Positions 6,157 to 18,305 are shown, numbered from the stretch's first letter. The stretch is 32,000 bases of DNA from Staphylothermus hellenicus DSM 12710 (GCF_000092465.1 NC_014205.1:1380001-1412000); one strand, 5' to 3'. Numbers and translations: made by a program. Notes: generated by a model from the letters alone, not told the origin.

Positions 6157-7827
6157 TTAAGCCCGCCTTTCATCATCGCTTATAATATGTTTATGTTTTT
6201 CTCTCATAAAAGTTGGTGTTCTAACATGTAGAATGATTGGATGAGGATCTAGAGCGTTTAGAAGGAGTGCTTCGCCCACACCTAGATATGCAAGCTTTTT
6301 CACAATTTCTCGAGGCAACCCTAGGAATCTCTCAGCATCTCTCCAATAATCCTCGTTTCTCGAACCAAACATTATGAGTAGATGTGTATTCTCTATTATT
6401 TCTCTTGGTATATCTCTAGGATTCTGAGTTGCTAGAACAACTCCTAAATGCTTGCTACGGCCTTCTTTAACAAGTTCTTCTAAACCATTTAAACGACTAA
6501 TTCTCCAAGCTTCATCTATAATTAAAAGCTTAGGTTTATCGATCATCTCAGTTGAGAAAACTAGTTTTTTATATATATGCATGAGAAGCCCGCCATAAGC
6601 ATTTTGGAAAGCTGTTCCATACTTTCCCAGATCAAAAACTACATGATTACTCAAATACTTCATAAGCACATCATACTTAGGCTTACTTGTAATAAGTTCT
6701 ATTAGGGGAGATAATAGCGATAAATCCCTGTCCAATAATACATCCTTTTCATTTATTACTTGGTTATTGCTTGTAATCTTATTCATTATTTTAATAAAAT
6801 TCTCTTTACTAATACCTATAACATTAGATAATACATCACTAACTGCTAAATACCAATCAATAATCTGGAAAAAGCTTGGTCTAACAAGAATATTGATCGG
6901 GTAATCGTTGGGAGTTAAATGTACTATGCCTTCACTGTAAACCATATTTGCTAAGTCCCCTTTAAAATCAATAGCGAAGACAAGAATACTTGACAAACTA
7001 GTTATACCCTCAATCATTGATGCTAGAAGAGTTGTTTTACCACGCCCTGTCGGGCCTAGTATTAGAACGTGTTTATCAAATAGTTTATAAGGTATTATTA
7101 CCGGCCATCCTGTCTCAGTATCTATTCCTATAGGTAAACCATCCTCTTTCTCCATTATAGGTTTTTTATTTTTAGGCAGAGGCATCATTGTCGATAATCG
7201 TTCATTATCTACTATTATTGATTTAATATTGGTTTCAATAGATAATCCTAATTCGTTTTTCAGAATATCCAATAATTCTCTTCGACTAGCCATTTTCATC
7301 TTGATACCGAAATAGTTTTGCATAATTCCCATAGTTTTGCTAGAATAAATATCCGCTAAATGTTTGGCATTATCTATACTATTTGAGACAACACGTATTT
7401 TAATGACTAAGTTAACACGAGTAATTGGTTTACTTTTAATAATATTTTCGTAAAGAGCTTCTAAGATTTTCAGTTTAACTTCTGCTCGTCTCTTAATATG
7501 CGGTTCTTCAACAGTATCCAATGTTGCACGCAAGTTCATCATTTCATTACTGATCTTTCGGAGAAGCTTTTCAATGCTCATTCTCCTTTTAATTATCTCG
7601 GCTTCTGAATAGGGAGGTAATGCATCTAACAATTCAGAAAACATGTTAGCCATTATCGATATTTTACTAGGATCTAATTCTTTAACACCATAATCAACTT
7701 CCTCAGCTATAAGATACCTGGTGAGATTTATTTTTCCCCGCAGAAACACTATTAGATCCGGAGGATCTATTTTATATTCTACTTTCCCACCTATTATTTT
7801 TTCAAATATTCTTACTATTTTTTTCAT
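6157..7827 (-). CDS. VirB4/TrbE/CedB-like P-loop ATPase (HerA-FtsK superfamily)
   Basis: Walker A VLILGPTGRGKTTLL, FAIDFKGDL, Walker B KLLIIDEAWRI, GVVLATQNPRDIP. This is the DEAW...TQ..D pattern characteristic of VirB4-type ATPases. Last gene of a membrane-protein operon. Confidence 0.8.
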   Translation of the reverse strand: MKKIVRIFEKIIGGKVEYKIDPPDLIVFLRGKINLTRYLIAEEVDYGVKELDPSKISIMANMFSELLDALPPYSEAEIIKRRMSIEKLLRKISNEMMNLRATLDTVEEPHIKRRAEVKLKILEALYENIIKSKPITRVNLVIKIRVVSNSIDNAKHLADIYSSKTMGIMQNYFGIKMKMASRRELLDILKNELGLSIETNIKSIIVDNERLSTMMPLPKNKKPIMEKEDGLPIGIDTETGWPVIIPYKLFDKHVLILGPTGRGKTTLLASMIEGITSLSSILVFAIDFKGDLANMVYSEGIVHLTPNDYPINILVRPSFFQIIDWYLAVSDVLSNVIGISKENFIKIMNKITSNNQVINEKDVLLDRDLSLLSPLIELITSKPKYDVLMKYLSNHVVFDLGKYGTAFQNAYGGLLMHIYKKLVFSTEMIDKPKLLIIDEAWRISRLNGLEELVKEGRSKHLGVVLATQNPRDIPREIIENTHLLIMFGSRNEDYWRDAERFLGLPREIVKKLAYLGVGEALLLNALDPHPIILHVRTPTFMREKHKHIISDDERRA

Positions 7828-7972
7828 TATACCACCATAGAATAGTTCTTAGAACAATAATGGATACTGTCAACAACACTATGAGCCCAATAATGCGTAA
7901 ACCAAATAACATCACAACAAATATTGGAAACAAAAACATCATTACCCAAATTATTTTCTCAGCTATACTCAT
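7802..7972 (-). CDS. candidate 56-aa two-TM membrane protein (not in ORF track; positionally VirB3/CedA2-like)
   Basis: My translation: MSIAEKIIWVMMFLFPIFVVMLFGLRIIGLIVLLTVSIIVLRTILWWYNEKNSKNI. Its ATG overlaps the TGA of the upstream 458-aa gene (ATGA). GGTGA SD lies 7 nt upstream. Its 3' end overlaps the ATPase start by 26 nt. Confidence 0.5.
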   Translation of the reverse strand: MSIAEKIIWVMMFLFPIFVVMLFGLRIIGLIVLLTVSIIVLRTILWWYNEKNSKNI

Positions 7973-9345
7973 AAACCAGTCACCACAATGCGGGCTATTC
8001 GCGAAGACGAGCCGCCTAAGAGTCTAGCTAATGCTAGAGATGCTGAAAATAAAACTGATAAGTAAATCATTGGTCCTAGAAATAGTCTATATATTAGGAT
8101 CGTTATTGGATAAACCAGGTTGGTTAGATCATTCATTTCTATGCCTAAAGTATCTCTTCCATAATATATTTCATCAAATACTGGCTCAGCTGTGCCGGAT
8201 AAAACATATGTAATCTCCACTAAGTGGTTACCCCTCGATAAACTGTACTCTTCTGCTTCAAACTTTGCTCCGCCCCATTCATAGGAATATGTGGTGGCAG
8301 GTTCTGCTTGAACATTATCTATTGATACAGAGAAGCTGTCGCTTTCTAAACCAATAATAATCATTGATGTAGCTTCTGATGCATTAATGTTGAGAATCGC
8401 TAGTGAATCATCCATGTAGAGGAGGCTGAAATTATTATAATTCATTAGTGCTAAGTATCTTAGAGGCTTAATAACTACTAGGTTATTGATTTTAATTGTT
8501 ATATTAACTATTCCTCTGCTTGAAGGATATTTTTTAGGATCAATCATGGTTTCATAGTGATAACCTGCAACATCTATTTTAACTCTATGCATACTATAAG
8601 GTATGCCTGTCTCAACAGTTGATGCATTAATGAATCCATTGGGATCAGATCTGTATCTAGCTTGAAGCTTGTTGTTTAAACTATATATTTCATATAAGCA
8701 ATAAGGAACACCAATATTGTTGTCGTCATAAACATGTATTTTTGCAAAAACAAATCCTTCATTACTAACACCTAAAATACTGGGAGGAGATATTGTATCT
8801 ATAAATCTAGGCATTAATGGCGTTCCAATACTGAATATTATCACTAAAGAAATAAGCATAGCCCCACTACTCCTCGTTATTCTAAAAGGAACGGAATGTA
8901 GAAGTATTCCCAGAGATAATATTGTTGGAGCCAATGTTACCAGTGCAGTTATTAAGATCGATGTTGTAATGAGAAACATTAACAAATATGTTAAACTCGA
9001 TACAAGAGGAGAAATCATAGAATTAGCGATAAATCCCAGACCAATACTGGATAACCCGATACCTATAAGTTTCAGCATAAGAATTGTCGTAACTATAACA
9101 TTTATCTCGTTTGCAAACCATAAATAATAGTTGTTCCAATCCGATCCCAGAGCTTCTCCGAGATAACCTATAATCCATAAAATAAAAGTATATGAGAATA
9201 CTAAAATAGCGGAAAATATACCATCAACCATTAGCTGGGGAGCCCATTTCTTTAAGCCATAAAAAGGTATTGGCAACATATAAATGAGGGTACCCATGTA
9301 ATAGGATAGAACAGATAAATAAAACGCTATCACTAATAGTTCCAT
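7969..9345 (-). CDS. polytopic membrane protein with a large beta-rich extracytoplasmic insert (candidate CedA/VirB6-like channel component)
   Basis: About 6 hydrophobic helices in residues 1-180. A ~220-residue hydrophilic, beta-strand-like region follows (VFAKIHVYDDNNIGVPYCLYEIYSL...VKIDVAGYHYETMID...). C-terminal hydrophobic helices (LVYPITILIYRLFLGPMIYLSVLFSASLALA) close the protein. The CDS itself is solid; the function is inferred from operon context. Confidence 0.6.
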   Translation of the reverse strand: MELLVIAFYLSVLSYYMGTLIYMLPIPFYGLKKWAPQLMVDGIFSAILVFSYTFILWIIGYLGEALGSDWNNYYLWFANEINVIVTTILMLKLIGIGLSSIGLGFIANSMISPLVSSLTYLLMFLITTSILITALVTLAPTILSLGILLHSVPFRITRSSGAMLISLVIIFSIGTPLMPRFIDTISPPSILGVSNEGFVFAKIHVYDDNNIGVPYCLYEIYSLNNKLQARYRSDPNGFINASTVETGIPYSMHRVKIDVAGYHYETMIDPKKYPSSRGIVNITIKINNLVVIKPLRYLALMNYNNFSLLYMDDSLAILNINASEATSMIIIGLESDSFSVSIDNVQAEPATTYSYEWGGAKFEAEEYSLSRGNHLVEITYVLSGTAEPVFDEIYYGRDTLGIEMNDLTNLVYPITILIYRLFLGPMIYLSVLFSASLALARLLGGSSSRIARIVVTGL

Positions 9346-9391
9346 GAGACAATCCCTGCAGAGTTTATTGTTTTAGAAGAACTCTTTAATA

Positions 9392-9658
9392 TTAAATAGT
9401 CGGAGGCTCCGGTAGAGGCTGGTAAAACGTATTTGCAACATAAGCTATCAATGCAAATACAGTAGTACCCATTGCTAACCAGAAAGCAGCCCACACTGCA
9501 TCCTCTATTAGCCTCTCCCCTGCTCTTTTAACCCTCATAAATGGAATAGGAGCCCCTTTAATAGCCCAACCTATAACCCATGTTAGAAAGAAAACTATCC
9601 AAGCAACAACAGTTATATTAACAATTATTTCCTGGATAAATCCTATTATGTCTGTCAA
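9392..9658 (-). CDS. 88-aa helix-loop-helix membrane protein (candidate CedA1/VirB2-like pilin)
   Basis: TTG start with GGGTGA SD 7 nt upstream. Two long hydrophobic helices are separated by the basic loop KGAPIPFMRVKRAGER. First gene of the operon, 46 nt upstream of the polytopic protein gene. Confidence 0.55.
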   Translation of the reverse strand: MTDIIGFIQEIIVNITVVAWIVFFLTWVIGWAIKGAPIPFMRVKRAGERLIEDAVWAAFWLAMGTTVFALIAYVANTFYQPLPEPPTI

Positions 9659-10070: not shown

Positions 10071-12041
10071 ATGAAGAAAATATGGCCTAAAAAGACAAGG
10101 ATTTACTGGGACCCAGAATATAATATACCGATAGTTAAGCCTTTACCGGGACAAGAGGATCTATTCTATATACTAAAACTCACAGAACCAGGCGATGCTA
10201 GACCAGCGTTTCATATTGATCATGAAAGGCTAATTAATGCTATAAAATATGAGTTTGGCGATGAAAAAATCTACAATGCATTCTTCAAGGACTATTTCAC
10301 ATTGCTTAACAAGGTTCCTCATTGGGATCAAATGTGGGAAACAATTGCTTCTGGTAATGTATTGGGCCAATTATACTATGATCCATTCCGTGAAAGATGG
10401 AGGTTTAGACTAAATTATGCAGGTGCATATATTGCTGTTAGAGACGGCCTCGTAGATCTTGTTAAAACCAGTAGTAAAGTCTTTAGAGGAACCTATATTA
10501 ATAAGTCCTCTACTAGTTCGCGTCAAGTAGTGATTATCAATGAGAAAGATGAAATAGTGGGTATTGGTGAAAATGTAGGGGATAAAATAATTGTTATAAA
10601 AACGTTCAGAGAAAAACGCTTACCAGTAGAAACCAGTATGAAGAAATCAAATTTGGAAACAGTCCTGAAACACAATGATTACGGCATAGAATTCTATAGA
10701 AGGAAAGCTGTAAAATTCCTAAGAAAACTCTACGAGAAAAACAAACTACCCATTGTTGTATCGTATTCTGGGGGAAAGGATAGTTTAACAGCATTGAATT
10801 TAACGCTTGAAGCATTTGGAGACGCTGAATTACTATTTAATGATACCGGGTTAGAATTACCGGAAACTATTAAGAACGTTGAGCATGTTTCAAAACATTA
10901 TGGTTTAAAATTAGTTAAGGCATCTGCAGGCGATGCATTCTGGAAATCAGTTTGGATCTTTGGTCCCCCCGGGAAAGATTATCGTTGGTGCTGTAAAGTA
11001 GCGAAGCTTGTGCCTATTGCTCGAGTAACCAGGGCTAAATGGGGTAATGGTGCACTAAATATTGTTGGTCAGAGAGCATATGAATCAATAGATCGTGCAA
11101 GAAGCCCTAGTGTTTGGAGAAATAGGTGGGTTCCACATCTATTGAGCGCATCACCTATTCAGGAATGGAACCAACTAGTTGAATGGCTTTATATAATTAA
11201 GTATAAGCTTCCATACAATAAACTATATGATATAGGGTTTGAAAGACTCGGATGTTATGTCTGCCCCTCAAGCACGCTAGCCGAGTTTAAGGAGATAGAA
11301 AAACATTACCCGGAAGAATGGCGGAAATGGATTAATGTTCTAGAGTATTGGAGGAAAAAATTAGATCAACCAATTGAGTGGATAAAGTATGGTTTGTGGA
11401 GATGGTTAACTCCAGCAGTGGCTAAATATAGATTAGCAAGACATATACCGGGATACAATGTAGATTGGAGACGAGAATATATATTAAGACTGCTGAATAG
11501 CACTGTCAATTTAGCCCCACTAAAGACCTCCTCTATTAATGAACATTTAACTATTATATTCAACAAGAACATAATTATTGACGAAGCACAACAACAACTA
11601 ATACATAATATACTTATGCTTAAGAAGAAAATCTATAGAGACAACGACAAGATCATAATTGAAACTAAAAATACAAGTATTATAATAGAGAAGAACAAGG
11701 TTGAGGTGTATCCTTATAAAGAACCTGAAAATTTAGAAGATCTAGTAGATCTCCTAAAAATAATATATAGAATCTATGGATGCGCCAAATGCGGAAGCTG
11801 CGTATTATGGTGTCCTCTAAAAATAATAAAGCTAACAAAATACGGGCCTATACCAACAAAGCCATGTATGGGTTGCAGAATATGCTTAGAAGTCTGCCCT
11901 ATCTCCGAGATATTGGTGGAGAAAGTAGTATTGCCATTGATAACAAATGATCCGGGTATATGGAAGAGGCCTAGTAGGAAACATGGATTGGAAGTTATAG
12001 AAACATTTCGTATGGCAGGGATAATACCTGGCGAAACTTAG
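10071..12041 (+). CDS. PP-loop ATP pyrophosphatase of the PAPS-reductase/DndC-like family with an N-terminal PUA-like region and a C-terminal 2x[4Fe-4S] ferredoxin domain
   Basis: PP-loop VVSYSGGKDS. Family motifs YRWCCKVAKL, GQRAYESIDRA and RLGCYVCP. C-terminal CAKCGSCVLWCP and CMGCRICLEVCP (two CxxCxxCxxxCP clusters). Residues ~100-180 (VVIINEKDEIVGIGE...) look PUA-like. Confidence 0.8.
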   Translation: MKKIWPKKTRIYWDPEYNIPIVKPLPGQEDLFYILKLTEPGDARPAFHIDHERLINAIKYEFGDEKIYNAFFKDYFTLLNKVPHWDQMWETIASGNVLGQLYYDPFRERWRFRLNYAGAYIAVRDGLVDLVKTSSKVFRGTYINKSSTSSRQVVIINEKDEIVGIGENVGDKIIVIKTFREKRLPVETSMKKSNLETVLKHNDYGIEFYRRKAVKFLRKLYEKNKLPIVVSYSGGKDSLTALNLTLEAFGDAELLFNDTGLELPETIKNVEHVSKHYGLKLVKASAGDAFWKSVWIFGPPGKDYRWCCKVAKLVPIARVTRAKWGNGALNIVGQRAYESIDRARSPSVWRNRWVPHLLSASPIQEWNQLVEWLYIIKYKLPYNKLYDIGFERLGCYVCPSSTLAEFKEIEKHYPEEWRKWINVLEYWRKKLDQPIEWIKYGLWRWLTPAVAKYRLARHIPGYNVDWRREYILRLLNSTVNLAPLKTSSINEHLTIIFNKNIIIDEAQQQLIHNILMLKKKIYRDNDKIIIETKNTSIIIEKNKVEVYPYKEPENLEDLVDLLKIIYRIYGCAKCGSCVLWCPLKIIKLTKYGPIPTKPCMGCRICLEVCPISEILVEKVVLPLITNDPGIWKRPSRKHGLEVIETFRMAGIIPGET

Positions 12042-14839
12042 TCATTATCTTTTAAATAAGTCTTAATTCTTAGATACTTCTTCTCGCTCTCATATAATTC
12101 GCTATATAAATCGTGGCCTTCAAGCACACGGTTAATTACACGAATAGCCTCGCTCACCCCGACTCCTCTAGAAGCTAGAACCTTGAGAGCTAATTCTCCG
12201 AACTGTGAATAAAGTATTGCTCGTTTCCTAAGATCTTCAAGAACAGCCTTTTCTTTCCTGCTTAACTTTGTTCTATTTAAAGCCTTCTTAACAATTATAG
12301 CTTCTTTCTCAGCATCCCCTTTAACCGGTGCCAGAGCCATATATCCACATCTAGGACATTTCCTAATATTAACCAACTTGCTTACGGTATCGGTGACCAC
12401 GTATCCACAATGTAAACATATTAAGCTCATCCGCCTCTTCATTATATGCTGCAAATACTTCTCCCTACCTGCCAATGAGGCTGGCATTACTGTTCTTATT
12501 TCACCATAATATGTTACTAACTGTCTCCCCCCATTAGTTAGTTTACTTGTAATTCTAGAGACAACTTTTATTTTACCATTTATGACTAAGTCAGCCAGTT
12601 TTCTGATTGATTCAATATCATAGTCTTTCCATAAAATCTCGTTTAACGCTTCATATCCTATAACAGTGTCCACAAAGGCTTCGAGCATAGCTCTAGTAAT
12701 TTTGTTTTTCTCAGGATCTATTGCTCCAAATCGTTGGGCTACTTGAAATATTCTCCAATGAATAGTGCCTTGTTCAATTGCTATTCTCTTTAAAATTTTA
12801 TGGTTCAGATATCGATTAATATTATGTATTACTTGTTCTATTGTTCTAACTACTTCTCTAACATATTGTTTATTATTTAATGTAATGAACACTGCGTATG
12901 GAGTAGAGTATGCATTAATTCTTAGAAACGGGTATCTCCATTGAACTACTGATTTCAATAGATCCCTCATAAACCTATTAACTCTTGAACCCCCATTAAT
13001 ATTAACTATTACGAGGCCGAGTTCAGTATTTCCCTCAATTATAATGGTTTTATCATCGGCGAGATCATTAATGCCTTCAAGTTTTATTTTATCATCCAAT
13101 AAGAGTGTTTTATAATAGTCAATCTTCTTGTTTGAAGAAATTCTTCTTATAAGTGATCCGACTTCTCTAGCTAGCTTGTATTCTACCGGTATGTTTTCGC
13201 CCTCCCAGTGAGGTATTACTATATTTTCGGATGCGCTATATGGTTCAACATATAGTTTAGCATTTTGTTGATCATATCCTATGACTTTCCACGGTTTTCC
13301 CCCAATAACTACTATGTCTCCTTCAGAGATATTTAGAACAACGTATTCCTCGTTTAACACACCTATTCGGCGGTCATCTACAATATTTATTATTATAACG
13401 TCTTTAGTGAATGGAATCATTGATGTTTTATATATGAATAATTTTGACCTAGAAGTTGGCTTGATAATATTATCTCTAACCTTGATAAGCCTAGCATATT
13501 TTAAGTATTCGATTAAGTCGTTGAATTCTTTTACATCAAGATCTCTATATATAGGATTCATAATTAACAATGAGTAAAGATCATATATGTTAATACCCCC
13601 AGTAAACAAACTATATAATACAATGGAATAAGCAAGAACATCTAATGGCTTAACAGGTATTCTCTCTTCCTCTATAACATTATTAATCGCTCTTCTAGCT
13701 ATTACGAGGGATTCTAGTATTTGTAAAGTATTGTTTTGAACAATTATTTCTCCACGAGAAACCCCAAATAATTTATGGCCGCTCCTACCAATTCTCTGAA
13801 CAAGCCTGACAACTTGTCTCGGAGACATGTATTGAATAACATAATCAATAAATCCAATATCAATACCTAGTTCCATGCTTGAAGTCGCAATTAAACCTTT
13901 TAAATATCCATTCCTAAAATCTTCTTCAACCCTTAATCTATGATTCCTTGACAAGCTTCCATGGTGAACTTCTACACGAACATTATTACCTCCTAATTTT
14001 TCGTCAGCAACTTTTAATAAATAACCAAGCTTCTCAGCTATCGATCTAGTATTGACAAATATGAGAATACTCCTCTTAGATCTAAACAAGTCATATATTC
14101 TAAGAATTCTAGCAATTAATTCTTCATCATCTATAATTGAGCCGAGAAGTTTACATTTATAATTATCCTTGCACTGGGGAACCACTACTTTTACATCGAT
14201 AGGCTTCAAAGTATTATCGATCAGCACATCTACGTTGCTAGGAAAAGTTGAACTACTCAATATTTCCATTGCCAAATTAATATTTTTCAAAGTTGCCGTT
14301 AAAGCGATCTTGATAAGTTTACGTCTGAGATGATGTTCTAATAGATAAATACTCGTTAATAATAATATACCACGTTTATTTTCTATTAAATCTCTAAATT
14401 CATCAATAACAATATATTTTAAATTAGCAAGATGTTTTCTCATCTTATTATTTATCAATATATAATTAAATGTTTCAGGAGTTGTAACGAGAATGTGAGG
14501 CGGATTTGCTTCAATATATTTGCGGATCTTATAGGGAGTGTCACCATGCCTTAAATTTATTGAAACCCCAAAACATTTAGCTAGCTTTTCCATTCTTTTC
14601 TTAATATCTCTATTAAGCGCTCTTAATGGTGTTATATAAATAGCCGATATTGGCTTATACCTATACTTATTTATTCTATACATTATTGGCAGCAGAGCAG
14701 CTTCTGTTTTACCAGAACCAGTTGGTGCAACAATTATTACAGAGTTTTTTTCATTATATATAGCTTTGAATGCTTTTTTCTGGAGAGATGTAAGTTCCCT
14801 ATATCCTATTTTCTGCAGACATTTAACAATATTGGTCAT
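12038..14839 (-). CDS. lhr: Lhr-type superfamily-2 DNA/RNA helicase with a C-terminal zinc ribbon
   Basis: Motif I APTGSGKTEAALLP, Ia YITPLRALNRD, II VIDEFRD, III LTATL, V ATSSMELGIDIG, VI QRIGRSGH. Long Lhr-like C-terminal extension with CLHCGYVV...CPRCG. Its stop overlaps the PP-loop gene stop by 4 nt (convergent). Confidence 0.85.
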   Translation of the reverse strand: MTNIVKCLQKIGYRELTSLQKKAFKAIYNEKNSVIIVAPTGSGKTEAALLPIMYRINKYRYKPISAIYITPLRALNRDIKKRMEKLAKCFGVSINLRHGDTPYKIRKYIEANPPHILVTTPETFNYILINNKMRKHLANLKYIVIDEFRDLIENKRGILLLTSIYLLEHHLRRKLIKIALTATLKNINLAMEILSSSTFPSNVDVLIDNTLKPIDVKVVVPQCKDNYKCKLLGSIIDDEELIARILRIYDLFRSKRSILIFVNTRSIAEKLGYLLKVADEKLGGNNVRVEVHHGSLSRNHRLRVEEDFRNGYLKGLIATSSMELGIDIGFIDYVIQYMSPRQVVRLVQRIGRSGHKLFGVSRGEIIVQNNTLQILESLVIARRAINNVIEEERIPVKPLDVLAYSIVLYSLFTGGINIYDLYSLLIMNPIYRDLDVKEFNDLIEYLKYARLIKVRDNIIKPTSRSKLFIYKTSMIPFTKDVIIINIVDDRRIGVLNEEYVVLNISEGDIVVIGGKPWKVIGYDQQNAKLYVEPYSASENIVIPHWEGENIPVEYKLAREVGSLIRRISSNKKIDYYKTLLLDDKIKLEGINDLADDKTIIIEGNTELGLVIVNINGGSRVNRFMRDLLKSVVQWRYPFLRINAYSTPYAVFITLNNKQYVREVVRTIEQVIHNINRYLNHKILKRIAIEQGTIHWRIFQVAQRFGAIDPEKNKITRAMLEAFVDTVIGYEALNEILWKDYDIESIRKLADLVINGKIKVVSRITSKLTNGGRQLVTYYGEIRTVMPASLAGREKYLQHIMKRRMSLICLHCGYVVTDTVSKLVNIRKCPRCGYMALAPVKGDAEKEAIIVKKALNRTKLSRKEKAVLEDLRKRAILYSQFGELALKVLASRGVGVSEAIRVINRVLEGHDLYSELYESEKKYLRIKTYLKDND

Positions 14840-14935
14840 AGTACATTTTCCCTTATAATAAGAGGGGTAAAACCCTTTTTAATTATCGCTGTATTATTAT
14901 AGATAACGAAATAAAATCTCTTATAAAAAATAATT
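14840..14935. promoter_or_regulatory. 96-bp divergent promoter region between the Lhr helicase and the membrane-anchored ATPase
   Basis: TATA-like elements are visible: CTTATAATAAG at 14852-14862 and TTATAAAAAA at 14921-14930. The exact transcription start sites cannot be assigned. Confidence 0.35.
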
Positions 14936-16804
14936 ATGAAAAATATGGATGATGATATGATTAATAAATATGTAGCTTGGATAAGGATTATTGTTGGGCT
15001 CATCATCAATTTCTTATATGTACATATATTGTCTCTTGTCTATAGCGGTTATAATATAGGTGGTCTAATACCTAATCCGTATTCCAATAGTGTTGTAATT
15101 TTTTTATTAAATATCGTCTTTGTTCTCGTTTCAAGCCTATTATATTCTTCGAACATTCTCGGAGTAATAAACTATACTATTATATATTGGTTAAATAAGT
15201 ATGTACTCAAATCCGGAATTGGTACAGCATTTTATGTTTATATGTTCTCACTTATCATAGCTCTAATATTTACTATATTGATTACTACAAAAATTTTGGG
15301 AACACATGATCTTATTCGAGAATATAGTTTTATAAAATCATTTGATATTTCTATTTTACATTTAATTACAATATATTTATCTATTCTTTCACTTAGCTTG
15401 CCTTTTTTATATCCTGTTTTCTATAGGGCCATGAAGTATTTTCTAATGGATAATATTGGCATAGTTGCTAATGCGATCATAACATCTGTATTTTCGCTGC
15501 AGGGTATGAGGAAATACATATATATTGTTCCTCTAGGAGTACTATCTATCTTTAGCTATTTAGCATCAGTTCCAATTATAGCATATATTTTATCTATTAT
15601 GATATCATATGAAGTATTTGAGTATAAATTATCAAAAATAATAACTCAGAACAGCGAACACATATATTTTGGAAAGATAAAAGCGATCCTTACATATGGT
15701 GTTCCTAGAAAAGTGTATCAGGAAATACATCATTATCGCCTCAAAAAGAAGACATGGTTTTGGAGAGCGATCGAAAAACCTCTATATATAGATCTAACAT
15801 CTTTGCCTAACAGACATATTTTAATAACAGGTGCAAGTGGTACGGGAAAGTCCTTGCTTGCAAAACATCTTGTCCTCGAAATTTATAAAAAATACGGACA
15901 TTCCTTTATAATTATAGATCCACATAATGAATATAAAATTCTTAGAAGATATATCCCTAAAATAAACATAGTAGATGCTTCAACACTTAGCATTAATCCA
16001 TTGGAACTTGGACGCTTAGGCCCGAAAGAAAAAGCATACCAGATATCAAGTTTCATATCAACCCTTTTCAAACTAGGCCCGATACAGAGGCATTTATTTG
16101 CAGACCTAATATTAGAGGTATATAGGTTAAAAGGAATTTATCCGGATAAGCCGGAAACGTGGAGCAATAAACCTCCGACAATACATGATCTATTAGAGTT
16201 CTGTCAGAGATTAATGAGTGATAATGAGCTCTATAAGAAAATCTATCCATATCTGCGAATTCTAGCTGATAACGTCTTTAGCTCGACAAATATTAGCTTT
16301 TATGATCTAACAAAAACTCCTACAATAGTGACCCTAAATGGTTTAAGTAGTGATTTTGTAAAGGCATTATATGTGAATGCTCTTTTACAGAGAATATTGG
16401 ATAGTATGTATATTGGTGAGTTAAGGAAGAAACTAATGATAGTGCTTGATGAAGCATATATGTTTCTTAGAAAAGGATTAAGCAGAAACATTGTATCAAA
16501 ACTATTAATGGAGAGCAGAAAATATGGTCTAGGATTAATAATTATATCACAACAGATCCTAGCAGTACCGGATCCTGTTGTGGAAAATTCTTCTATAAAG
16601 ATCTTTTTCAACACATCTGAGCCTAAAAACCTGGAATACTCTTCCCGGATAATATGTAGTGGATGCGATAAATACGGAATTATTGCTTCAAAATCGGCTT
16701 TAACAAATCTTAAAAGCTATAATTATATTCTATCAATTAGTGGGTTTAACGAAATATTTATTGTTAATGAAGAGGATATTGCACAAAATATGTATGCAGG
16801 GTGA
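14936..16804 (+). CDS. HerA/FtsK-type (DUF87-like) P-loop ATPase fused to an N-terminal polytopic membrane domain
   Basis: Residues ~10-230 contain ~7 hydrophobic helices. The ATPase part has Walker A ILITGASGTGKSLLAKH, the HerA-like IIIDPHNEY, Walker B LMIVLDEAYMF and ESRKYGLGLIIISQQ. Confidence 0.8.
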   Translation: MKNMDDDMINKYVAWIRIIVGLIINFLYVHILSLVYSGYNIGGLIPNPYSNSVVIFLLNIVFVLVSSLLYSSNILGVINYTIIYWLNKYVLKSGIGTAFYVYMFSLIIALIFTILITTKILGTHDLIREYSFIKSFDISILHLITIYLSILSLSLPFLYPVFYRAMKYFLMDNIGIVANAIITSVFSLQGMRKYIYIVPLGVLSIFSYLASVPIIAYILSIMISYEVFEYKLSKIITQNSEHIYFGKIKAILTYGVPRKVYQEIHHYRLKKKTWFWRAIEKPLYIDLTSLPNRHILITGASGTGKSLLAKHLVLEIYKKYGHSFIIIDPHNEYKILRRYIPKINIVDASTLSINPLELGRLGPKEKAYQISSFISTLFKLGPIQRHLFADLILEVYRLKGIYPDKPETWSNKPPTIHDLLEFCQRLMSDNELYKKIYPYLRILADNVFSSTNISFYDLTKTPTIVTLNGLSSDFVKALYVNALLQRILDSMYIGELRKKLMIVLDEAYMFLRKGLSRNIVSKLLMESRKYGLGLIIISQQILAVPDPVVENSSIKIFFNTSEPKNLEYSSRIICSGCDKYGIIASKSALTNLKSYNYILSISGFNEIFIVNEEDIAQNMYAG

Positions 16805-17070
16805 AATCTTCATTGATTTTGGAGGAGAATAGTGAAACATTAGAAGAGAAGGAAGAAACAGAAGAAAAAATACCGCCTCGCCTTGTAAGAATAAACTATC
16901 TAGAAAAATTCATTAAAACAACTATTCTATGGGAAAAATTTATTCACGGAGACATATCACTTAGAGACCTAGAAAAAGAACTTGCTAGAACAAAAAAGCG
17001 CAAAAAGACCGCTAAGAAGAAGGCGTCTAAGAAGAAATCAGCTAAGACAAAGAAAAAATCAGCTAAATGA
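16801..17070 (+). CDS. small protein with an acidic N-terminus and a poly-lysine C-terminal tail (putative nucleic-acid binding)
   Basis: GTG start overlaps the ATPase stop (GTGA). An alternative TTG at 16813 lies 8 nt after GGGTGA. Tail: RTKKRKKTAKKKASKKKSAKTKKKSAK. Confidence 0.6.
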   Translation: MKSSLILEENSETLEEKEETEEKIPPRLVRINYLEKFIKTTILWEKFIHGDISLRDLEKELARTKKRKKTAKKKASKKKSAKTKKKSAK

Positions 17071-17446
17071 ATTGTTTATGTATATCTACACTGCTGTAAC
17101 CTATTTTCTTAAGGCAGCTTATTACTTTATCAACACTAAATCTTCGATCAAAGACTATTTCAACATTATTCTCAGAATCTTTTTTGAAAAGTTTAATTTT
17201 ATGAACGACAACTCTACCCAAAATAACGTCTCTCTGCTCTTTAGGTGGAGCTATATATTCTTCGAATCTCTTCCTAGAAAACCTGTAAAACTCCTCAAAG
17301 TTCCTGATGATCCGCAGCGCTTCTTCGAGATCTCTAGTTATACTAGTATTTTCACCAATACACTCTAGTAGCTCTATTGCTTTTTTCCATGATAATTGAA
17401 CATGGGGGCTCTTAGCAAGATCAATAACTATGCTTATTTCACTCAA
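17063..17446 (-). CDS. hypothetical protein
   Basis: 127 codons, TTG start with GGGTG/AGGT SD-like sequence upstream. Divergent from PCNA. No motif I can name. Preferred over the overlapping plus-strand ORF 16982-17368. Confidence 0.5.
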   Translation of the reverse strand: MSEISIVIDLAKSPHVQLSWKKAIELLECIGENTSITRDLEEALRIIRNFEEFYRFSRKRFEEYIAPPKEQRDVILGRVVVHKIKLFKKDSENNVEIVFDRRFSVDKVISCLKKIGYSSVDIHKQFI

Positions 17447-17546: not shown

Positions 17547-18305
17547 ATGTTTAGAGCCAGCTACACAGCTACATCGAAATTCAAATACATAACACAAACA
17601 ATAGCTAAGATAACTGATGAGGCACCATTTTATGCTACACAAGATGCTTTAGAAGTTAGAGTCCTCAGCCCTGATAAGACAACACTTACAATAGTTAAAA
17701 TACCATCCATAGCTTTTGAAGAATATGAAGTGGATGAGGAGAAACACTTTGTAATTGGAGCCGGCGAGCTAAATAAGATAGTGAAAAGAGGAACCAGAAA
17801 CGATATCTTAGTATTTGAGCTTGACGAAGAAAAGAACCAGTTAAAAATCATTTTCAGAAACAAGAAGACTGGTATTGAGAGAAGCTTTGTTCTTGAAACA
17901 AAGCCTCGGACAGTTGAGAAAATACCTGAACCACAAATAGATCTTGGAGTCACAGCTAGATTTGTTGCTGATGATTATAAACATATAATTAGAGACTTGA
18001 AAATAATTGGAGAAGAAGCAGTATTTCATTATAAGGACGGGAAGCTCTATATATATTCTCATGCAGAACAAAAAGAGTATAGAGGAGAATTCTCGGAAGG
18101 AAACCCGCTCACATATTTGTCTGCAACAATAGATGAAGCACGCGCAAGATATAGTGTTGGATTATTGGAAGCCACACTTAAACCTATTCAAGCAGCAAAG
18201 TTTGTAACGTTATCGTTTGATCGAGATAAACCCATGAAGATAGAGTTCGAAATAACAGAAGGTGGATACGTAGTATACTGGATAGTTCCCAGGATTGAAG
18301 CATAA
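17547..18305 (+). CDS. pcn: DNA polymerase sliding clamp (PCNA)
   Basis: 252 aa, two-domain PCNA-like pattern (FRASYTATSKFKYITQTIAKITDEAPFYATQDALEVRVLSPDKTTL...YLSATIDEARARYSVGLLEATLKP...MKIEFEI). Confidence 0.9.
   Translation: MFRASYTATSKFKYITQTIAKITDEAPFYATQDALEVRVLSPDKTTLTIVKIPSIAFEEYEVDEEKHFVIGAGELNKIVKRGTRNDILVFELDEEKNQLKIIFRNKKTGIERSFVLETKPRTVEKIPEPQIDLGVTARFVADDYKHIIRDLKIIGEEAVFHYKDGKLYIYSHAEQKEYRGEFSEGNPLTYLSATIDEARARYSVGLLEATLKPIQAAKFVTLSFDRDKPMKIEFEITEGGYVVYWIVPRIEA

Follow-up and report, generated by a model that had tools for sequence, protein, structure and literature searches.

A family of membrane-fused HerA/VirB4-type ATPases encoded beside lhr, rpo13 and pcna in crenarchaea, probably paralogous to CedB and CedD

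A polytopic membrane ATPase of the HerA/VirB4 branch

The 32,000-nt stretch of the Staphylothermus hellenicus DSM 12710 chromosome analyzed here (NC_014205.1:1380001-1412000; the window) contains a gene for a membrane-fused HerA/VirB4-clade ATPase (positions 14936–16804, plus strand), followed directly by the gene for the RNA polymerase subunit Rpo13. The ATPase belongs to an uncharacterized, unnamed and vertically inherited family present in Desulfurococcales, Acidilobales, Fervidicoccaceae and Sulfolobales, and sequence comparison indicates that this family is very probably a third paralogue beside the DNA-import ATPases CedB and CedD, orthologous to neither. An earlier note, made from the DNA alone, had pointed to an open reading frame (ORF) of 622 codons coupled to one of 89 codons, and both are present as it described them. 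Neither is a chance ORF, because the larger product matches Pfam DUF87, the 'HerA central domain', with 64.1 bits (cut-off 23.2), and 249 library proteins were retrieved at E<1e-30 when the family profile was run exhaustively with HMMER.

The gene model of the ATPase was built from the ORF, the DUF87 match, family alignments and an AlphaFold2 model (mean predicted local distance difference test score, pLDDT, 89.4; predicted template modelling score 0.81; 60-sequence alignment). It starts with ATG and encodes 622 amino acids; alternative starts lie at M4 (14945) and M8 (14957), the latter equivalent to the position at which the closest homologue begins in the 19-sequence family alignment. The S. 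hellenicus database protein, a 452-aa 'ATP-binding protein', is identical (100%) to the C-terminal 452 residues, and the NCBI record begins at M171, omitting most of the membrane domain (window positions 14936–15445). We take the long form to be right because homologues of 590–660 aa align from the N-terminus; the family alignments and the AlphaFold2 model support a length of 615–622 aa over the annotated 452 aa.

The protein consists of two parts. Residues 1–235 (14936–15640, plus strand) form an N-terminal polytopic membrane domain of about seven helices, as the note had estimated and as both hydropathy and the AlphaFold2 model indicate, the modelled helices spanning residues 4–36, 48–69, 73–92, 95–121, 139–165, 173–190 and 194–235. 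The domain has no Pfam match; its length is kept across the family, and N25, S72 and N79 are invariant in close homologues. We considered whether it could be a fused channel resembling CedA or VirB6 and rejected this, as hhalign against CedA returned a probability of 0.04%. Residues 240–622 (15653–16801, plus strand; pLDDT mostly >90) form a cytoplasmic β-hairpin, with strands at residues 243–255 and 273–285, and a RecA-like ATPase domain.

All four ATPase motifs listed in the earlier note were recovered, with key residues invariant in the 19-sequence alignment. Walker A reads GASGTGKS (residues 299–306; 15830–15853, plus strand), in which G299, S301, G302, G304 and K305 are invariant among 19 sequences and G299, G302, G304 and K305 among 60. 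It is followed by IIIDPHNEY (residues 325–333), with D328, P329, H330, E332 and Y333 invariant among the 19. Walker B, VLDEA (residues 503–507; 16442–16456, plus strand), opens the segment VLDEAYMF (residues 503–510) and has D505 and E506 invariant in the 19 sequences, E506 also in the 60. The fourth motif, SRKYGLGLIIISQ at residues 527–539, is part of the conserved segment ESRKYGLGLIIISQ (residues 526–539; 16511–16552, plus strand), where E526, S527, R528, K529, G531 and Q539 are invariant in the smaller alignment and E526, R528, K529 and Q539 in the larger one. By analogy with HerA and VirB4, R528 is a candidate arginine finger and Q539 a candidate sensor.

The protein is placed in the HerA/VirB4 branch by its RecA-like P-loop core, which has both Walker motifs and the conserved arginine and glutamine. 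The Pfam HerA_C match was below its cut-off and covered little beyond the P-loop. In Foldseek searches the top relatives were the C-terminal domain of DndH (7ES4), HerA (4D2I) and VirB4 (4AG5/4AG6), with E values of 1e-12 to 1e-14 and an identical ranking for two models of the ATPase. Pfam, Foldseek and the AlphaFold2 model therefore bear out a membrane-fused ATPase of the HerA/FtsK superfamily, as first proposed, and its nearest folds, those of DndH, HerA and VirB4, belong to DNA translocases.

A published S. islandicus cedD quantitative PCR primer is matched exactly in two JGI metagenomic contigs (L030 and L031), the second of which provided our reference for CedD. The gene at L031:4864-6489 encodes a 541-aa protein with 771.7 bits on the NCBIfam CedD profile (cut-off 600), identifying it as bona fide S. 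islandicus CedD. Its neighbours are the thermosome gene and fbp (fructose-1,6-bisphosphatase) instead of lhr, rpo13 or pcna. The best NCBIfam match of the window ATPase is likewise CedD (NF053655), at 73.8 bits and over profile positions 222–476 of 527. Direct comparison with S. islandicus CedD gave 63.5 bits and 28% identity over 277 aa, within the ATPase domain only, and hhalign aligned the two at residues 247–560 with 99.3% probability. The CedD architecture, a short transmembrane (TM) anchor followed by a domain resembling the VirB4 N-terminal domain (NTD) and by the ATPase, differs from the roughly seven TM helices found here, which are joined to the motor with no such NTD.

The closest relative in Sulfolobales was a different protein. 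The family member encoded on contig L036 scored 150 bits against the window ATPase (32% identity over 319 aa) and 67 bits against S. islandicus CedD, the two Sulfolobales proteins coming from different metagenomic contigs. We assign L036 to Sulfolobales on the basis of two matches, one of about 250 bits between its PCNA and S. solfataricus PCNA1 (SSO0397) and one of 68 bits between its Rpo13 and that of S. shibatae. Its family member lies in the same arrangement, divergent lhr and then ATPase, rpo13 and pcna1, of which L037 provides a second example. Since similarity within the family across orders exceeds similarity to CedD within an order, the split between the family and CedD probably predates the divergence of the orders, which would make the family a third paralogue. 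For CedB (NF041017, cut-off 700) the ATPase gave no match at E<=0.01, and its similarity to the CedB-like protein of the window itself was limited to 33 bits (27% identity over 71 aa).

The extent of the family became apparent only in the full HMMER search, as word-indexed searches for homologues had stopped at about 20 close clusters, short of CedD. Some 80 listed representatives of clusters at 50% identity have 3–8 hydrophobic segments and a Walker A at about residue 207–334; the few members with a named source are from Desulfurococcales, Acidilobales, 'Thermoprotei' and metagenome-assembled genomes of Fervidicoccaceae. A P-loop-pattern scan of genome contigs, for which the pattern was too general, gave among the matches listed only soluble HAS-barrel HerA-like genes of Euryarchaeota and bacteria. 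When motor domains were placed in a crude neighbour-joining tree, the membrane-fused proteins clustered apart from soluble HerA-like proteins, and CedD fell outside on a long basal branch, so that this tree cannot settle the deep relationship.

In Sulfolobales, the tags SSO0394/Saci_0814 denote aLhr1 (PMC10003305) and SSO0396/Saci_0816 denote Rpo13 (PMC2675907), so SSO0395 and Saci_0815, which fall between them, should be the family members. Literature searches with the tags Saci_0815, SSO0395, Msed_0053 and Smar_1003/1005 returned nothing on the ATPase. No close relatives were found on the plasmids or viral contigs searched. An origin in a mobile element or conjugative plasmid was considered and rejected: plasmid matches reached 25–29% identity in the ATPase domain only, a single viral match was marginal, and the neighbours are housekeeping genes. 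The window as a whole is housekeeping DNA, with genes for a ribosomal protein, POR, HisRS and RtcB; it contains no tRNA genes, and the ORFs scanned included no integrase.

Rpo13 and the conserved gene block

The protein encoded downstream of the ATPase is the already known RNA polymerase subunit Rpo13, an identification in which we have high confidence. Its gene (16801–17070, plus strand) encodes 89 aa when read from GTG 16801, or possibly 85 aa from TTG 16813. Residues 13–52 match Pfam PF12136 with 49.7 bits (cut-off 25, E 3.3e-13), and a search of the whole PDB gave only four matches at E<=1, all of them Sulfolobus Rpo13 chains (2WAQ_Q, 2Y0S_J, 2WB1_J, 3HKZ_Y), in which positions 17–99 of 104 align with residues 8–87. 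The PDB E values are weak (0.007–0.03) owing to composition bias. The hallmarks of Rpo13 are present as well: a glutamate-rich N-terminus, a lysine-rich C-terminus and a gene near pcna. The small genes downstream of the ATPase in 12 related loci encode proteins that align with this one and have an acidic N-terminus, an I..L..W core and a tail rich in lysine and arginine.

The last 27 residues (63–89; 16987–17067, plus strand) read RTKKRKKTAKKKASKKKSAKTKKKSAK and include 17 basic residues, exactly the tail quoted in the note, which had taken it for a DNA binder and the small protein for the dedicated partner of the ATPase in a DNA-pumping pair. The first part is upheld by published work: the lysine tail of S. 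shibatae Rpo13 binds double-stranded DNA non-specifically, and binding is lost when the tail is deleted (Wojtas et al. 2012, PMC3479171). The second part falls with the Pfam and PDB results, as a subunit of RNA polymerase is not one half of a dedicated pump. Stably bound to the polymerase, the S. hellenicus protein would hold downstream double-stranded DNA with its lysine tail, which follows an acidic N-terminus and a helix-turn-helix core. Korkhin et al. 2009 (PMC2675907) include S. marinus Smar_1004 among the Rpo13 orthologues and report that rpo13 and pcna share a transcript in Sulfolobus. In the Rpo13 literature searched, we found no mention of a conserved upstream ATPase.

The ATPase stop codon and the GTG start of rpo13 share the letters GTGA, so the small gene does begin inside the stop codon as first described, provided that GTG is the start used. 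TTG 16813 is a plausible start too, because a Shine-Dalgarno-like GGTGA of archaeal type overlaps the ATPase stop (16800–16804, plus strand) and rpo13 orthologues begin, in alignment, at the position equivalent to 16816. The two closest loci (L001 and L003) have an identical GGTGA at the ATPase stop, and L002 and L005 have GGTG or GGTGA upstream of rpo13. The junction is tight whichever start is used.

We compared 13 loci, the window and 12 others, over which identity to the window ATPase falls from 64% to 27%. The order is invariant in all 13: lhr on one strand, then divergently the ATPase gene, rpo13 and, further on, pcna. The small ORF is thus retained downstream of the ATPase throughout, and the loss of conservation that the note had named as a ground for abandoning its proposal is not seen. 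From the ATPase stop to the rpo13 start there are at most 14 nt in nine loci, and three (the window, L035 and L037) have a 4-nt overlap. The ATPase evolves faster than its neighbours; between L001 and the window it is 64% identical, compared with 77% for Lhr and 90% for PCNA.

The divergent neighbour of the ATPase gene in every locus is an aLhr1-type Lhr helicase gene, located in the window at 12038–14839 (minus strand; Pfam DEAD, Helicase_C, WH_Lhr and DEAD_assoc). In L038:7402-9938 (minus strand) Lhr appears as two ORFs of 582 and 238 aa, reflecting a split gene, a frameshift or an assembly error. The PCNA sliding-clamp gene (17547–18305, plus strand; Pfam PCNA_N) is likewise present in all 13. 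Between rpo13 and pcna lies a 127-aa gene on the minus strand (17063–17446), which runs towards rpo13 and shares the final 8 nt of that gene. Its presence renders cotranscription of rpo13 and pcna unlikely in the Staphylothermus lineage. It has no Pfam, NCBIfam or PADLOC match; orthologues of 122–128 aa occupy the same position in nine of the 12 other loci, and the gene is missing there in the Sulfolobales-type loci L036 and L037 and in L006 and L007.

The 96-nt intergenic region between lhr and the ATPase gene (14840–14935), presumed to hold the divergent promoters, contains TGTATTAT at 14890–14897, which fits the Sulfolobales consensus of the ccr-2/aCcr1 box. For S. islandicus, the lhr promoter is given in a published list as one that has an aCcr1 box and is repressed by aCcr1 (PMC9976892). 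The seed GTATTA occurs in seven of the 13 orthologous intergenic regions compared with 2.0 expected from shuffling, the loci not being independent of one another; as aCcr1 is documented only in Sulfolobales, the enrichment is suggestive, a lead that we did not use as evidence.

On the other side of lhr, a gene at 10071–12041 (plus strand) encodes a 656-aa PAPS-reductase-like protein with 4Fe-4S domains (Pfam PAPS_reduct 138.5 bits; NCBIfam PRK13795-type). The gene runs towards lhr, which it overlaps by 4 nt, and separates lhr from cedA1 in 10 of the 13 loci. Next to it is the Ced-like operon that the note had placed about 5 kb from the ATPase gene, found at 6157–9658 (minus strand) at a distance of 5.3 kb, with cedA1 at 9392–9658 and cedA-like (7969–9345) and cedB-like (6157–7827) genes of diverged sequence beside it. 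CedA1 is above its NCBIfam cut-off (123 bits; cut-off 100), and the other two are below theirs, with 140.6 bits for CedA (cut-off 330) and 111.8 bits for CedB (cut-off 700), the latter with nearly the whole model aligned. The CedA-like protein has 458 aa, of which only residues 2–186 match the 259-position model, leaving about 270 residues without a match; orthologues in related loci have 453–469 aa. The CedB-like ATPase, which shows no hydrophobic segment by hydropathy, appears to be a soluble form of CedB; such forms have been reported for some species.

The link between the ATPase and Ced that the note had considered possible is no more than partial, a ced operon lying within 3–5 kb in eight of the 13 loci. 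In the rearranged locus L035 the operon is on the opposite side of the block and still adjacent. Within the available sequence of L036, L037 and L038 there is no ced gene, the contigs of L036 and L037 ending only 2–3 kb upstream. In L001:1-891 and L003:1-815, the two closest, Staphylothermus-like loci, a gene for tetrabrachion, the S-layer stalk, replaces cedA1-cedA.

Possible functions of the ATPase

The fold points to a membrane-anchored, ATP-driven DNA translocase. By analogy with HerA, VirB4 and DndH, the ATPase would assemble as a hexameric ring that its own membrane domain holds on the cytoplasmic side of the membrane. K305, D505/E506 and R528, the last acting in trans, would power the ATP-dependent passage of DNA through the pore of the ring. 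Constitutively expressed, such a pump might move chromosomal DNA relative to the membrane in the manner of FtsK/SpoIIIE, at division or in repair linked to Lhr. We lean slightly and tentatively towards such a housekeeping DNA pump over a dedicated component of Ced, and this is the weakest inference of the analysis. The lean derives from the FtsK-like layout, the universal linkage to lhr, rpo13 and pcna, the occurrence of a family member in a metagenome-assembled genome of Fervidicoccaceae, and absence from the DNA-damage lists: no gene of the locus appears in two lists that hold cedA, cedB and cedD, namely Table S1 of PMC11868833 and the TFB3-UV iModulon list of PMC11823120.

Several observations weigh against a housekeeping pump. 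The DNA substrate and the ring are predicted from the fold only, and the argument from regulon lists is a negative one that draws on two papers. Among named NCBIfam families CedD is the closest to the ATPase, whose taxonomic range is nearly that of Ced, and the proximity of ced in eight of the 13 loci, L035 included, suits a role in Ced at least equally well. Lhr of S. acidocaldarius is listed as non-cyclic, which weakens a link to the cell cycle, and the ATPase gene could be functionally tied to rpo13, given that the two genes are kept side by side. SSO0395 and Saci_0815, moreover, are presumed family members on the strength of tag numbering and one metagenomic contig.

An alternative that we rate only a little less likely than the housekeeping pump is that the ATPase serves as a third Ced motor, docked through its membrane domain on the CedA/CedA1 conduit, where it would pull or gate DNA together with CedB and, where present, CedD. 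Its CedD-like motor, a ced adjacency that survives the rearrangement in L035, family orders that match those reported for Ced (PMC11823120, PMC11868833) and the two or three ATPases common in machines resembling type IV secretion systems (T4SS) all speak for it. Yet no ced gene lies within the available sequence of L036, L037 and L038, L001 and L003 have tetrabrachion instead, ced proximity in related genomes may be inherited synteny, the ATPase is missing from the DNA-damage regulon lists, its N-terminal domain has no similarity to CedA, and the Fervidicoccaceae member belongs to an order reported to have VirB4 instead of CedB/CedD. The earlier suggestion of a second motor for Ced was reasonable, since CedD has been described in the meantime (PMC11868833, PMC11823120), but its identification with the window ATPase does not hold, the latter being closer to the L036 protein than to CedD. 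We consider it improbable that the ATPase is nonetheless orthologous to CedD, as its Desulfurococcales version in which the N-terminus has diverged and grown, and as the 2025 papers may have counted it. CedD is reported in 'most Desulfurococcales' beside CedB, the window has a CedB-like gene, and CedD is the top NCBIfam match of the ATPase, the S. hellenicus candidates compared being those of the window; against this stand a score far under the cut-off over part of the profile, the lack of any counterpart to the TM and NTD region of CedD, the presence in Sulfolobales of a protein in the lhr/rpo13 position that resembles the ATPase more than either resembles CedD, and the place of CedD outside the membrane-fused cluster, on its long branch, in the crude tree.

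It is quite improbable that the motor moves a cargo other than DNA, in assembly of a pilus or surface filament or in protein export, as VirB4 does in T4SS biogenesis. In its favour are the closeness of the VirB4 fold, a proposal that CedB energizes assembly (PMC11823120), and the genes for tetrabrachion and the CedA1 pilin that are nearby in some loci, but the nearest relatives include the dedicated DNA translocases HerA and DndH, the conserved neighbours (Lhr, Rpo13, PCNA) all handle DNA or RNA, and no secretion substrate is conserved in the block. Very improbable, too, is a dedicated two-component membrane DNA translocase in which the lysine-tailed protein has a second job or is not a polymerase subunit here. 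The two genes are adjacent in all 13 loci down to 27% ATPase identity, often with overlapping or nearly overlapping stop and start, their families have similar phyletic ranges, and the tail binds double-stranded DNA non-specifically (PMC3479171). However, the adjacency always includes pcna and lhr, so the block looks like an information-processing cluster, and there is no indication of physical interaction. Least credible of all is a modification or defence system like Dnd or BREX type 4, formed by the PAPS-reductase-like protein, the Lhr-type helicase and the DndH-like ATPase. It is suggested by consecutive PADLOC matches to BrxP (160.8 bits, PAPS-reductase domain only), BrxHI (271.5 bits) and DndH (100.2 bits, motor only) and by the DndH C-domain as top fold match, but these matches concern generic domains, namely the core of PAPS reductase, the Lhr helicase and, at positions 1364–1638 of 1715 in the DndH profile, the HerA-like motor, and no other Brx, Pgl or Dnd component was seen among the window ORFs scanned. 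The PAPS-reductase gene is absent from the block in L035–L038, and the fixed position among housekeeping genes across four orders is unlike that of defence islands. We know of no DndH or BrxC that is membrane-embedded. Membership in Dnd or BREX type 4 was accordingly rejected, the PADLOC matches being at domain level and the position that of the core genome.

Crenarchaea of these orders exchange chromosomal DNA through Ced and divide by ESCRT-III. To our knowledge, no septal DNA translocase that would correspond to bacterial FtsK has so far been established in them. The set of motors known to move DNA at their membranes is incomplete, the known Ced ATPases being CedB and, since 2025, CedD. The family described here would be a third conserved ATPase of HerA/VirB4 type with a polytopic membrane domain and a fixed address by lhr, rpo13 and pcna, of which we found no mention in the searchable literature. 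Assignments of 'CedD' outside Sulfolobales may have merged two paralogues. A more speculative reading, which we regard as rather unlikely, is that the block marks an unrecognized core machine of Cdv-dividing, Rpo13-bearing crenarchaea, a membrane-anchored HerA-type pump that would either be the functional counterpart of bacterial FtsK or serve T4SS-like DNA import as its essential third motor, with Lhr, PCNA and the Rpo13 tail as possible partners. Through its presumed orthologues Saci_0815 and SSO0395 the ATPase is a genetically tractable candidate, and a false lead has been removed with the recognition of the poly-lysine protein as Rpo13.

Comparison with known motors and with Rpo13

The downstream protein shares with Rpo13 of Sulfolobales and Desulfurococcales (S. 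shibatae 2WAQ_Q, SSO0396, Saci_0816, Smar_1004) the helix-turn-helix domain, a near end-to-end alignment, the charge polarity and the pcna neighbourhood; at 89 aa it is shorter than the crystallized Rpo13 of 104 aa.

By the membership tests run, the ATPase is not VirD4, FtsK, canonical HerA, CedB or CedD. With HerA (S. solfataricus 4D2I; T. kodakarensis HerA-NurA 9X1M) it has the RecA-like motor fold in common (Foldseek E about 1e-13), but it scored about 40 bits on the canonical HerA profiles NF040937/NF040819, whose cut-offs are 800–970. It lacks the HAS-barrel N-domain and is embedded in the membrane, whereas HerA is soluble, and no nurA, mre11 or rad50 is among the genes listed in the window and the 12 related loci. 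The best superpositions were with the C-domain of VirB4 and the C-terminal motor of DndH, with target-normalized TM-scores of 0.72–0.78 (0.78 for 7ES4) at an identity of about 22%; the ATPase is without the VirB4 N-terminal domain, the N-terminal 1,300 residues of DndH and the partners DndF/G.

CedD (Saci_0667 / SiRe_1715) is likewise a membrane-bound ATPase of the HerA/VirB4 clade, occurs in the same orders and has the same motifs, GxSGxGK, D.HGEY, L..QR, DEA and E.RKY...I(S/T)Q. It differs in having two N-terminal TM helices and a soluble domain of about 170 aa resembling part of the VirB4 NTD, where the window ATPase has its seven or so helices and the β-hairpin only, and in its genomic position, Sulfolobales having a separate positional orthologue of the ATPase as well. 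CedB (Saci_0748), the VirB4-like ATPase of Ced, belongs to the same superfamily, and in the window the cedB gene of diverged sequence lies 7 kb away.

VirD4 and TrwB are also membrane-anchored P-loop ATPases of this superfamily, and the note had envisaged a role like that of a VirD4 coupling protein. This was not borne out: the match to PF10412 (17.7 bits, cut-off 20.5) covers only the P-loop at residues 292–333, the all-alpha domain is absent, and no VirD4 or TrwB chain is among the top 50 folds. For FtsK/SpoIIIE, too, the match is restricted to the P-loop (PF01580, 21.0 bits, cut-off 24, residues 279–316), and no FtsK chain was among the top 50 Foldseek matches. Unlike FtsK, the ATPase has no long linker and no gamma (KOPS-binding) domain, ending at a motor of the HerA/VirB4 branch. 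In layout, nevertheless, the two are alike, by analogy and not by membership, in that an N-terminal polytopic membrane anchor is joined to a C-terminal pumping ATPase.

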